Positions 3,183 to 56,179 are shown, counted from the first letter of the stretch. The stretch: DNA of 64,000 nucleotides from Escherichia coli (GCF_003790525.1 NZ_CP033635.1); one strand, 5' to 3'. Notes: generated by a model not told the origin, from the letters alone. Translations and numbers: made by a program.

Positions 3183-3884
3183 TCAGATAAATGCAAACGC
3201 ATCGCCAAACAGGCGATCTTCCCGCGCATTACGCTCGCTGCAAAACAGGTCACGGGCAATTTTCGCCATCTCAAAACGTCCGGCAATATAGATATCATGC
3301 TCTGCCAGCGTACCATGATCCTGCAATACCGCCGTTAACACGGTGCCAGTACGCCCACGCCAGCCCGCTTCCGGTTGTTCAACCACCGGCACCACTTGCA
3401 GACCAGGATGCTTCAACGAAAGCGCCTCAAGCTCGGAGAGATCATAAAGATGCTGCTCTTCACGCCCGCCCCAGTAAATGGTGATATCACGGTTTGGGTT
3501 ACGCGCCAGCGCCGTCAGCAAAATCGAGCGCGCATAAGAGAACCCGGTGCCACCCGCAATCAAAATCATCGGACGTTCTTCATCATCGCGCAGCCATGCC
3601 TCACCGTGCGGAATATCGACCACGATTTGATGATCTTTAAGAATGCGGTCCATGACTGCTTTCGCGTAAAGGTTGATTTCAGAAGCGCCAATATGCAGCT
3701 CGATGAACCCTTTTTCATCTGGCGTCGAAGCCATTGAGAACGGACGTTTGTCACGCTCATCCATCACTACCATCAAATACTGACCAGCACGAAAAGAAAA
3801 GGCCGCGTCTGGTACGATTCGGACACGGTATACGGTATCCGTGATAGCTTCTACCGAGGTCACTTTACAGCTTAAGGTTGTCAT
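3183..3884 (-). CDS. fre: NAD(P)H-flavin reductase Fre
   Basis: Translation [21 protein letters not shown]... matches Fre; the six-frame ORF extends 11 codons further upstream, start chosen at MTTLSC. Confidence 0.9.
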
Positions 3885-51944: not shown

Positions 51945-52265
51945 ATGAACGACAGTGAATTTCATCGCCTGGCTGATCAACTGTGGCTGACCATTGAAGA
52001 GCGTCTGGACGACTGGGATGGCGATAGCGATATCGACTGCGAAATCAACGGCGGCGTGCTGACCATTACCTTTGAAAACGGGAGCAAAATCATTATCAAC
52101 CGCCAGGAACCGCTGCACCAGGTATGGCTGGCAACCAAACAGGGCGGCTACCATTTTGATATGAAAGGCGATGAGTGGATTTGCGATCGTAGCGGCGAAA
52201 CCTTCTGGGATTTGCTGGAACAGGCGGCAACGCAGCAAGCGGGTGAAACAGTCAGTTTCCGCTAA
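51945..52265 (+). CDS. cyaY: Frataxin homologue CyaY
   Basis: 106 aa, [33 protein letters not shown]... Confidence 0.95.
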
Positions 52266-52304: not shown

Positions 52305-54851
52305 TCACGAAAAATACTGCTGTAATAGCGGCGTGTCGTGATCCTGATTGGCAGGCGGCATGTTGCCAATCGATTTGGTGCGGAACGGAATCACCTGTTC
52401 ACGACCATCAACCTTCACAATCTGATAGAACTGCGGCAGGTTGAAGTTGATGAAGCTTGAGCCGTAGGTAAAACGGTCGTGCGATGACGAGTAGAAGCGA
52501 CTGACGTCACGCACCAGCTCCTCTTTGCTGCCTTCGCAGTGGTGATACACCTCAACCCGGTTGCTTTCGTCGAGAATGTAGATATTAAAGCCATTCTCGT
52601 CTTGCGTTTCTTCGAAGAAGAACTGGATGATCCCTTCGCTGGCAAAGCCGTCCACCACCGCCGGTAATTTGACGTGATTGGTTTCAACCTGCACTGACAG
52701 GCCGTGCAGTTTGTTATGCGAAATAGCGCCATAAAACTCGATGGCATTTTCTAGTTTCTGTACCGATACATTCAGGCGTTCGAAGAATAAGCCCCAGGTT
52801 TGACCAGAAACGCGCAGCGCCTTGAAACGTCCGGTTTCCTGGCGGGTGCTGGAAAGACGCAGTTCAATGCACTCAGAAACCAGTTGCTGCACGCGAGTAC
52901 GGATTAATCCGCGCAGATGCTGGCTATAACAGAAGACTTCCACGCTATCTGGCGGTGCGGCGTCCTGATGCATTTTACCGAGAATGGTTTTCAGGGCTTC
53001 GATCATCGACTGCTCGCCGTTGAAGTGCAACGTACGCACTTCGTTCCACGAGTTGCGGTACAGCAGGTCCACGCTACCTACCAGGCAATTTTGATTCTCG
53101 CCAAAGCTGAAGACGTCCAGCTTACGGAAATCAAAATGCACCACCTGATTGCGGAACGCAGCTGTCGGGTCATATTCCAGGTTAACGATAATCGCCAGAT
53201 GGCGAATCTCACATGGGCTGTAGAGCGCTTTTGGCGTCGGTGCAGGCAGGCGCAGCGGGAAATGGTGCGACACGTCGGCGACCATCTCCTGCAACTTAGG
53301 CAAATCGACAATGCCGTTGCCTTTAATATACAAGCGGGTGCGCGAGGTCAGCAGGCCGTTAAACCATGCCCACGCCACCAGTTTATTCAGGTAACGGTTA
53401 TATTCCAGCGGCTGATGGCTGATGATCGACTCAATATTTGGCGCGCGGTTATACAGATACCAACCTGAACGGTTAGCCCGGCCCGGCGGCACATAAATAA
53501 AGGTCAGATTCGGTTCCGAGAGATCGGGCGAAATCTGCGGGTTTACCAGCGTCACTTTACCTGGCAATGCTTCAAACGCGGCGTACAGCTTACGTGTCAG
53601 CACGCCGATATCCTGCGGGCTGGCGGAGACGCTAAGGTTATTGCGGCGCGCAAAGCGGATCAGATTACGGTAGCTCTGCATCATCGCGTCGAGCAGCTCG
53701 TTGTGCGCCTCACGCACCTGATCAATCTTCCAGTTGGCGCGGTTATCGAGCATTGCCAGACGCGCATCGTCCCATTCCCACTCTTTCACTAACTGGGTTA
53801 GCACTTCACGACGCCAGCCTACGCAAGCGCGTTCGCGGCTGAGTTTTTCGCACACTTTTAAATAGAAGCAGCGGCGTACTAAATCCAGACGGGTGAAATC
53901 TTCAATCGCCGTCAGGTATTCCGTAACACGCTCCAGCATCATGCAGTATGGATCGAGGCCAAACGACACAATCTCGCCGTCGTGCAAACGCTGTTTGATA
54001 TCTTTCGCCAGCAGGCGTGGGTTGGGATATTCCCAGGAATAGGCTTCCAATAGCAGTGTTTTCAGCACCGCTTTGTATGGGGAATCGATACTCTTGTAGA
54101 GCTGCCAAAGGCTGGCACCAAAGTACTCTTCAGCAGAAAGCGAGCTTAAGCCACCAAGATCCAGCCATTCATTAGGAGTAAGCACGCCCTGCGCGTAAAG
54201 CGTCATCACATAGTCGTCGTAATGCTCTTCTTCGTCGCACGGCACCATATTCCACAGAATACGCTTACCGGCGAGACGCACGGCGGTACGATAAAATTCG
54301 TCAAGCAGCAGTATATGCTGGGTGGAGCCACAATCTTCGCCCCCCAGGCTGCCGCTTTCATTATGACGGAAGCGATTTTCATCAATCAGGAAGAAGCTGA
54401 CTTCCACACCCAGCGAGGCGGCCCAGCTTTCCAGCAGACTACATTTACGTTGTAGTAACTGGCGCTCTTCGCTATCGAGCCAGGATTGATGACAGACCCA
54501 GATATCCAGGTCAGAGGAACAACTTTGCCCTACGGACGAGGTGCTGCCCATGGTGTATACACCAGTAATTGGAAGCTCACCTTTCGGCGGATCCTGTACT
54601 GACATTCCACGATACAGTTCAAGCTCGTTCAGGTAGTGGCGTTGAGTTTCATCAGGCGTGTAAAGGCAAATGCCTTTGGGAACGTTACCATCAAGGTAAC
54701 CCGGCATTAGCGGATGGTGATAGTGCAACAATGTCGGCAGTAGACTGTAGACCTGTTGGAATGCAGGCCCCATAGCAGCAAGCGCGCGATCCACACGCAA
54801 TTGATTTATGGCATCCAGTCTCTGTTTCAGAGTCTCAATATAGAGGTACAA
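52305..54851 (-). CDS. cyaA: Adenylate cyclase CyaA (class I)
   Basis: 848 aa, [31 protein letters not shown]...; the first codon is TTG in the sequence. Confidence 0.95.
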
Positions 54852-55237
54852 GACGTATCGCCTGATTTGCTACCCGTCATGACTGTGATTCCGCCAACAT
54901 CAACGGTAACACGCGGCATTCGGGATATTTCGTATGTCAAAGGTAACCGTTACCACTTTTCGCGCCTGGTTTTTTTAGTTTCACGACGAAAAAATGGTCT
55001 AAAACGTGATCAATTTAACACCTTGCTGATTGACCGTAAAGAAAGATGCGCTACATACAAGTGTAGCACCGTTTATTCTCTGTAAATTCCTTATTACGAC
55101 GGCGTGAAACGCCTGTCAGGATCCACTGCCAGACCTCATTTTACGGTTTGCGCAGGCGTCTACGTTTCACCACAACACTGACATCGCTCTGGCAAGGATG
55201 TTAGGATGGACCACGGATGATAATGACGGTAACAAGC

Positions 55238-56179
55238 ATGTTAGACAATGTTTTAAGAATTGCCACACGCCAAAGCCCACTTGCACTCTGGCAGGCACAC
55301 TATGTCAAAGACAAGTTGATGGCGAGCCATCCGGGCCTGGTCGTTGAACTGGTACCGATGGTGACGCGCGGCGATGTGATTCTTGATACGCCGCTGGCGA
55401 AAGTAGGCGGAAAAGGCTTATTTGTTAAAGAGCTGGAAGTCGCGCTCCTGGAGAATCGCGCCGATATCGCCGTACATTCAATGAAAGATGTGCCGGTTGA
55501 ATTCCCGCAAGGTCTGGGGCTGGTCACCATTTGCGAGCGTGAAGATCCTCGCGATGCCTTTGTGTCCAATAACTATGAAAGTCTGGATGCGTTACCGGCA
55601 GGCAGTATCGTCGGGACGTCCAGTTTACGTCGCCAGTGCCAACTGGCTGAACGCCGCCCGGATCTGATTATCCGCTCCCTGCGCGGCAACGTCGGCACTC
55701 GCCTGAGTAAACTGGATAACGGCGAATACGATGCCATCATTCTTGCCGTAGCCGGACTAAAACGTTTAGGTCTGGAGTCCCGCATTCGCGCCGCATTGCC
55801 ACCCGAGATTTCTCTTCCGGCGGTAGGACAAGGTGCGGTGGGTATTGAATGCCGCCTTGATGATTCTCGCACTCGCGAGCTGCTTGCCGCGCTGAATCAC
55901 CACGAAACTGCACTGCGCGTTACCGCAGAACGCGCCATGAATACCCGTCTCGAAGGCGGATGTCAGGTGCCAATTGGTAGCTACGCCGAGCTTATTGATG
56001 GCGAAATCTGGCTGCGTGCGCTGGTCGGCGCGCCGGACGGTTCGCAGATTATTCGCGGTGAACGCCGCGGTGCGCCGCAAGATGCCGAACAAATGGGGAT
56101 TTCGCTGGCAGAAGAGCTACTGAATAACGGCGCGCGCGAGATCCTCGCTGAAGTCTATAACGGAGACGCCCCGGCATGA
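55238..56179 (+). CDS. hemC: Porphobilinogen deaminase (hydroxymethylbilane synthase) HemC
   Basis: [27 protein letters not shown]...; start chosen at MLDNVL. Confidence 0.95.

Follow-up and report, generated by a model that had tools for sequence, protein, structure and literature searches.

A conserved TTG initiation codon of cyaA as a probable limit on how much adenylate cyclase Escherichia coli makes

The cya locus and the cyaA reading frame

The window analyzed here is a 64,000-nucleotide stretch of Escherichia coli DNA (GCF_003790525.1, NZ_CP033635.1), and it includes the adenylate cyclase gene cyaA. According to the RefSeq annotation of matching records, the gene order is that of the E. 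coli cya locus, with hemC divergent on the 5′ side of cyaA and followed by hemD, hemX, and hemY, and with cyaY convergent on the 3′ side. Coordinates of the genes and of the smaller features discussed below are collected in Table 1. At the 5′ end of hemC, three in-frame ATGs lie within 55217–55240 on the plus strand, at 55217, 55223, and 55238; the ORF list begins the gene at the first of these (320 aa), and RefSeq and K-12 begin it at the third (313 aa).

In the ORF list, cyaA is an 848-codon frame on the minus strand that runs from 54851 to 52305 and ends with TGA. Its product matched the NCBIfam equivalog NF006977 with 2049.3 bits, against a cut-off of 1761, and residues 1–848 aligned to positions 1–848 of the 848-position profile. 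Pfam domains PF12633 (Adenyl_cycl_N) and PF01295 (Adenylate_cycl) were found at residues 5–200 (E = 1.2e-82) and 228–825 (E = 8.7e-259), respectively. The frame had been named CyaA in the initial annotation, and the full-length match above the cut-off bears this out, as does the finding that 842 of the 848 residues are those of K-12 CyaA. From this last figure, the protein is predicted to catalyze the conversion of ATP to cAMP.

The E. coli K-12 gene (b3806, NP_418250.1) is the same gene, with the same TTG, an identical 80 nt around the start, and the same hemC and cyaY neighbors. It differs from the window at 2 of 386 nt in the intergenic region 5′ of cyaA, and at 79 of 2547 nt (3.1%) and 6 of 848 residues in the cyaA allele itself; the window is thus E. 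coli DNA other than that of K-12. Relative to K-12, the residue differences of the window allele are N142S and a tight cluster at CyaA codons 349–362, comprising A349E, S352T, S356K, G359E, and E362D; this clustering suggests a recombined patch. Against the best-matching strain checked, the window allele showed 33 nt differences.

Table 1. Features of the cyaA start region and its neighbors, in window coordinates
Feature	Position	Strand	Basis
cyaA CDS, 848 codons + TGA, class I adenylate cyclase	52305..54851	-	ORF list, translation, NF006977, Pfam
TTG initiation codon of cyaA	54849..54851	-	Direct reading, RefSeq CDS starts, orthologues
In-frame TAG stop, 6 codons 5′ of TTG, closing the frame	54870..54872	-	Frame reading
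First in-frame ATG, codon 27, rejected alternative start	54771..54773	-	Frame reading; conserved residues 2-26; Pfam N-terminal domain from residue 5
Weak Shine-Dalgarno core AGG at -12..-10, 9 nt before TTG	54861..54863	-	Anti-SD pairing, conservation
Conserved translation-initiation block ATCAGGCGATACGTC (-15..-1)	54852..54866	-	116 listed species
30-codon uORF, ATG 54919, crossing TTG out of frame	54919-54827	-	Leader reading
17-codon uORF, ATG 54880, nested in the 30-codon ORF, crossing TTG	54880-54827	-	Leader reading
7-codon uORF, ATG 54900, its TGA overlapping ATG 54880 as ATGA	54900-54877	-	Leader reading
hemC-cyaA divergent intergenic region, 386 bp, with cyaA leader and promoters	54852..55237	.	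Annotation
hemC (hydroxymethylbilane synthase), divergent neighbor of cyaA	55238..56179	+	RefSeq annotation mapped to window
cyaY (frataxin homologue), convergent with the cyaA 3′ end	51945..52265	+	RefSeq annotation of locus L001, mapped

The TTG codon in E. coli and in orthologues

By direct reading, positions 54849–54851 are CAA on the plus strand and TTG on the minus strand. This is the triplet with which the initial annotation had cyaA initiate, and it does stand at the head of the 848-codon frame; the coordinates assigned to it were right as plus-strand positions, and needed only the minus strand, which had been left unstated. The ORF list picks the first ATG, GTG, or TTG after a stop codon, meaning that a frame opening with TTG is true by construction. 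The authenticity of TTG as a start is therefore the real test, and was checked independently. An in-frame TAG closes the frame on the 5′ side, and the six codons between TAG and TTG, CAA ATC AGG CGA TAC GTC, include no ATG, GTG, or TTG. The nearest 5′ ATG in E. coli (54880) is 29 nt from TTG and out of frame. On the 3′ side, the in-frame candidates are a TTG at codon 18, a GTG at codon 20, and an ATG at codon 27, none of which has a Shine-Dalgarno sequence better than that of the TTG.

Public annotation places the start at the same codon. The RefSeq/PGAP start of cyaA is this TTG in FDAARGOS_497, where locus position 3380 corresponds to window position 54851, and likewise in K-12 GM4792 and in isolate GPT24-02. 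A comparison with K-12 had been proposed in the initial annotation, and b3806 of MG1655 (3991153..3993699) indeed starts at the same site with the codon TTG. Across complete E. coli genomes, the 80 nt centered on TTG were 100% identical in 5417 of 5425, and a 631-nt segment across the cyaA start was at least 99% identical in 5418 of 5425. The one variant of the 80 nt that was examined carries a change at −32, which leaves codon 1 unaffected. When TTG was replaced by ATG or GTG, the resulting 80-mer had no exact match in any genome of the E. coli collection. The start region had no match in 1 of 5426 complete E. coli genomes, and was present in two places in some genomes, with one extra copy on a plasmid.

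We then scanned for orthologues using one genome per species and a degenerate DNA pattern for residues 6–17 (ETLK[QK]RLDAINQ), a pattern that codon 1 lies outside. The scan returned at least 120 Enterobacterales loci, and 116 of those listed had enough 5′ sequence. Among the matches listed, 115 of 116 Enterobacterales species have TTG as the homologous codon, and these genes share with E. coli a conserved 17-residue N-terminal stretch. In the same 116 listed species, L8 is encoded by six Leu codons (CTG, TTG, CTT, CTA, TTA, and CTC), L12 by five Leu codons, and position 18 by six Leu codons plus one TTT. Because these internal Leu codons vary synonymously while codon 1 is TTG, codon 1 stands apart from ordinary Leu codons. 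The per-column profile of the 116 species shows third-position wobble and coding-type conservation only 3′ of TTG, and at the protein level the alignment begins with residue 2. In-frame stops stand one codon 5′ of TTG in Providencia vermicola (L084), two codons 5′ in a Sodalis-like symbiont (L092), and five to six codons 5′ in many other listed species.

Outside the order, genes from Vibrio ponticus, Photobacterium sanctipauli, Aeromonas veronii, and a metagenome contig are likewise annotated as starting with a TTG that aligns with that of E. coli. The cyaA genes of Vibrio, Photobacterium, and Aeromonas resemble that of E. coli both in this start and in having a divergent porphobilinogen deaminase (hemC) gene adjoining, though across Enterobacterales, Vibrionaceae, and Aeromonas the leader 5′ of −16 is unrelated between genera. 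Taken at sequence level, the comparison indicates that selection has kept TTG specifically across these three groups. The Pseudomonas-type class I cyclases (NCBIfam NF006982–NF006985) have the same Pfam domains and are homologous over most of their length, whereas the one example read (L126) has an ATG start and an N-terminal extension of ~15 residues; E. coli CyaA scores below the cut-offs of NF006982–NF006985.

The sole exception in the 116 listed species is L034, a metagenome-assembled genome (MAG) named Enterobacteriaceae bacterium bran_bin.7, with TTT at cyaA codon 1. An error of assembly would explain this, as would true loss of the start codon.

Initiation region, leader, and alternative starts

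The Shine-Dalgarno core preceding TTG is weak, with the best duplex between the AGG region and the 16S anti-Shine-Dalgarno sequence reaching just −2.9 kcal/mol. Its conservation among the 116 listed species is high, with an invariant G at −10 and values of 90% for the G at −11 and 82% for the A at −12. A weak Shine-Dalgarno sequence fits a low-output initiation site, and nothing in the sequence by itself would mark the site as a strong one. The AGG belongs to a longer block with the consensus ATCAGGCGAnAyGTC, in which most columns are 82–100% conserved and positions −6 and −4 vary. The block lacks codon periodicity, and conservation drops abruptly to near zero 5′ of −16 (116 listed species). 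Third positions of codons 2 and 3 (TAC and CTC; 54848–54843) are ~88% fixed. Judged from the alignment, the conserved block from −15 to +9 appears to be more than an AGG Shine-Dalgarno sequence needs. A 120-nt fold at the start was no better than shuffled sequence (z = −0.69), and Rfam gave no match at E ≤ 1 within 54700–55300.

Of the two promoter-like hits that a promoter scan returned, one is on the strand of hemC and the other, at the hemC start, on that of cyaA; neither is at the expected cyaA promoter site. Between the divergent hemC and cyaA genes, an 8-bp inverted repeat, GTGCTACACTTGTATGTAGCGC (55048–55069), followed by T-rich sequence, had a terminator-like score on both strands. Just 3′ of this repeat, TTTACG and TAAATT separated by 17 nt (55040–55012) form a possible cyaA promoter.

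Some relatives differ from E. coli in the leader, where an ATG lies in frame at −30 or out of frame at −5. The ATG at −30 is the only recurring 5′ in-frame ATG among the 113 listed species, and is found 30 nt before TTG in E. albertii, two Citrobacter species, and Salmonella enterica subsp. diarizonae. A 1-nt indel, AGCAACATC in E. albertii, Citrobacter, and Salmonella versus AGCAAATC in E. coli, puts the 5′ ATG in frame and removes the in-frame stop in those relatives; it is because of this indel that the E. coli ATG is out of frame and followed by an in-frame TAG. On sequence grounds, a CyaA isoform longer by 10 residues is therefore possible in E. albertii, Citrobacter, and Salmonella enterica subsp. 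diarizonae, though not in E. coli. The ATG at −5 arises where the sequence is GATATGTCTTG, as it is in 22 of the 113 listed Enterobacterales loci, versus GATACGTCTTG in E. coli. Loci with this ATG include L006, L024, L096 (Klebsiella oxytoca), L082 (Kosakonia), and L062 and L104 (Cedecea). It opens an ORF of 6–49 codons, 9 codons in most cases, which shares the AGG Shine-Dalgarno sequence, and it could compete with the cyaA start.

These data bear on where translation of cyaA truly begins. Were the first in-frame ATG at codon 27 (54773..54771) the true start, TTG would do no more than open the frame; this ATG is the nearest one in frame to the TTG, and bacterial genes start with ATG far more often than with any other codon. 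Residues 2–26, however, are conserved at the protein level across the listed Enterobacterales and recognizably in Vibrio and Aeromonas, and codons 2–26 wobble at the third position as coding sequence typically does. The Adenyl_cycl_N alignment begins at residue 5 and that of NF006977 at residue 1, codon 27 has no Shine-Dalgarno sequence at a usable distance, and codon 1 is fixed as TTG while ordinary Leu codons drift. With residues 2–26 conserved and lying inside the Pfam N-terminal domain, the Met27 start was rejected, and we consider it extremely improbable. A start 5′ of TTG, at the in-frame ATC (54866) or at ATG 54880, would yield a longer protein, and the ATG homologous to 54880 is indeed in frame, 10 codons 5′ of TTG, in L007 (E. 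albertii), L086 and L087 (Citrobacter), and L090 (Salmonella enterica subsp. diarizonae). In E. coli, though, ATG 54880 is out of frame and an in-frame TAG separates it from TTG, on which grounds a 5′ start was rejected for this species. The 1-nt indel between E. coli and these relatives also marks the stretch as free of coding constraint, and conservation is near zero 5′ of −16; 5′ in-frame ATGs with no intervening stop occur in just 14 of the 113 listed species, at scattered positions, and many listed species have in-frame stops one to six codons 5′ of TTG. As for the ATC at codon −5, it lies inside the conserved block, and a start there would leave the AGG 3′ of the start. A 5′ start is almost certainly wrong for E. 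coli.

A further possibility retains TTG as the start but has short out-of-frame uORFs that extend over it (ATG 54919 or 54880, TGA 54829..54827) control ribosome access to it. Such uORFs overlapping the cyaA TTG are present in E. coli, and the out-of-frame ATG 5 nt 5′ of TTG that shares the AGG occurs in 22 of 113 listed species. Against this, the uORFs vary among the listed species in position, frame, and length, no Shine-Dalgarno sequence stands out 5′ of them, and short ATG ORFs would be expected by chance in a leader of ~150 nt, a length estimated from our own reading of the promoter. Conserved uORFs were rejected, since some are present but position and frame are not conserved, and the uORFs of the E. 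coli cyaA leader are probably due to chance; we regard control of cyaA through them as very unlikely. The initial annotation had allowed for an in-frame ATG with a better ribosome-binding site and orthologue support, and no such ATG was found in E. coli. No evidence against TTG as the cyaA start was found in sequence, annotation, population, orthologues, protein models, or literature. We conclude, with a probability of about 0.96, that the minus-strand triplet 54851..54849 is the authentic start of cyaA and that UUG, together with a weak Shine-Dalgarno sequence, caps the adenylate cyclase made per mRNA.

Low-output initiation and the conservation of TTG

The rare UUG start of cyaA, described as early as the 1980s, often serves to illustrate how a non-AUG codon limits expression. 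It is already known in E. coli, and public records place it correctly. In bacteria, every start codon is read by the initiator fMet-tRNA(CAU) (PMC5622118), and because of this the nascent CyaA begins with formyl-methionine. The initial annotation had regarded the methionine of the ORF track as a translation convention, and here a small correction applies: UUG is read by the initiator fMet-tRNA, and the protein truly starts with fMet, which makes the methionine more than a convention. Paired with the CAU anticodon, UUG would be mismatched at its first position, and this imperfect pairing is what would make UUG initiation inefficient. In combination with the weak AGG Shine-Dalgarno sequence, UUG would bring initiation several-fold below that of AUG, and inefficient initiation would in turn cap the adenylate cyclase made per cyaA mRNA. 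Conservation of TTG may then serve to hold CyaA, and hence cAMP, low.

That initiation at this codon is known to be of low efficiency, as the initial annotation had held, agrees with mutagenesis by Reddy, Peterkofsky, and McKenney (1985; cited in PMC5499595), in which the native cyaA initiation region yielded adenylate cyclase in the ratio 1:2:6 when the start codon was UUG, GUG, or AUG, respectively. The same article describes the UUG of cyaA as conserved in many Enterobacterales and other gammaproteobacteria, and considers low expression to be possibly too simple a rationale for conserved non-AUG starts (PMC5499595). Other genes resemble cyaA in being regulatory or dose-sensitive and in having a conserved non-AUG start, namely, infC (AUU), spoT (UUG), and tufA and hupB (both GUG) (PMC5499595). 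Of these, tufA and hupB reach high expression in spite of GUG, whereas the UUG of cyaA lowers synthesis ~six-fold relative to AUG (PMC5499595). The AUU of infC is the target of autoregulation by IF3; to our knowledge, there is no comparable feedback for cyaA.

Dose limitation could be joined by a second reason for conservation, in which TTG is the start and has been retained for condition-specific control (nutritional stress, cold, or ppGpp). UUG-initiated mRNAs would, on this account, keep competing for ribosomes when cAMP synthesis matters. In competition with AUG mRNA, UUG mRNA was hardly affected (~12% reduction) where other non-AUG mRNAs lost 30–60%, and UUG was the codon least sensitive to cold, nutritional state, and ppGpp, a property proposed to matter for cyaA and spoT (PMC5499595). 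Our own comparison lends this some weight, given that the codon is TTG in 115 of 116 listed species and never GTG, though GTG would also lower output, and that the nucleotide-level conservation from −15 to +9 exceeds the needs of the AGG Shine-Dalgarno sequence. The published experiments, however, used model infA-derived mRNAs in vitro and not cyaA (PMC5499595), neither structure (z = −0.69) nor a known RNA family was detected at the cyaA start, and simple dose limitation explains the data equally well. Condition-specific control as an addition to dose limitation is thus unlikely overall, if not negligibly so, and the cyaA data are neutral, neither supporting nor excluding robustness of UUG under nutritional stress or ppGpp. 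More doubtful again is a stronger form of the idea, in which the near-absolute TTG (never GTG or ATG) and the conserved −15 to +9 block would together constitute a dedicated translational control site on cyaA mRNA. Among the candidates for such control are preferential initiation at UUG during starvation or under ppGpp, and recognition of the site by a protein or small RNA.

For the authentic TTG start, the practical meaning is that the gene call in the window is correct, and that no "repair" to ATG should be made. The occurrence of TTG in 115 of 116 listed species, set against internal Leu codons that drift, amounts to a clean comparative demonstration of selection on an initiation codon. Should cyaA mRNA prove to carry a dedicated control site, the TTG would be more than a passive throttle on adenylate cyclase.
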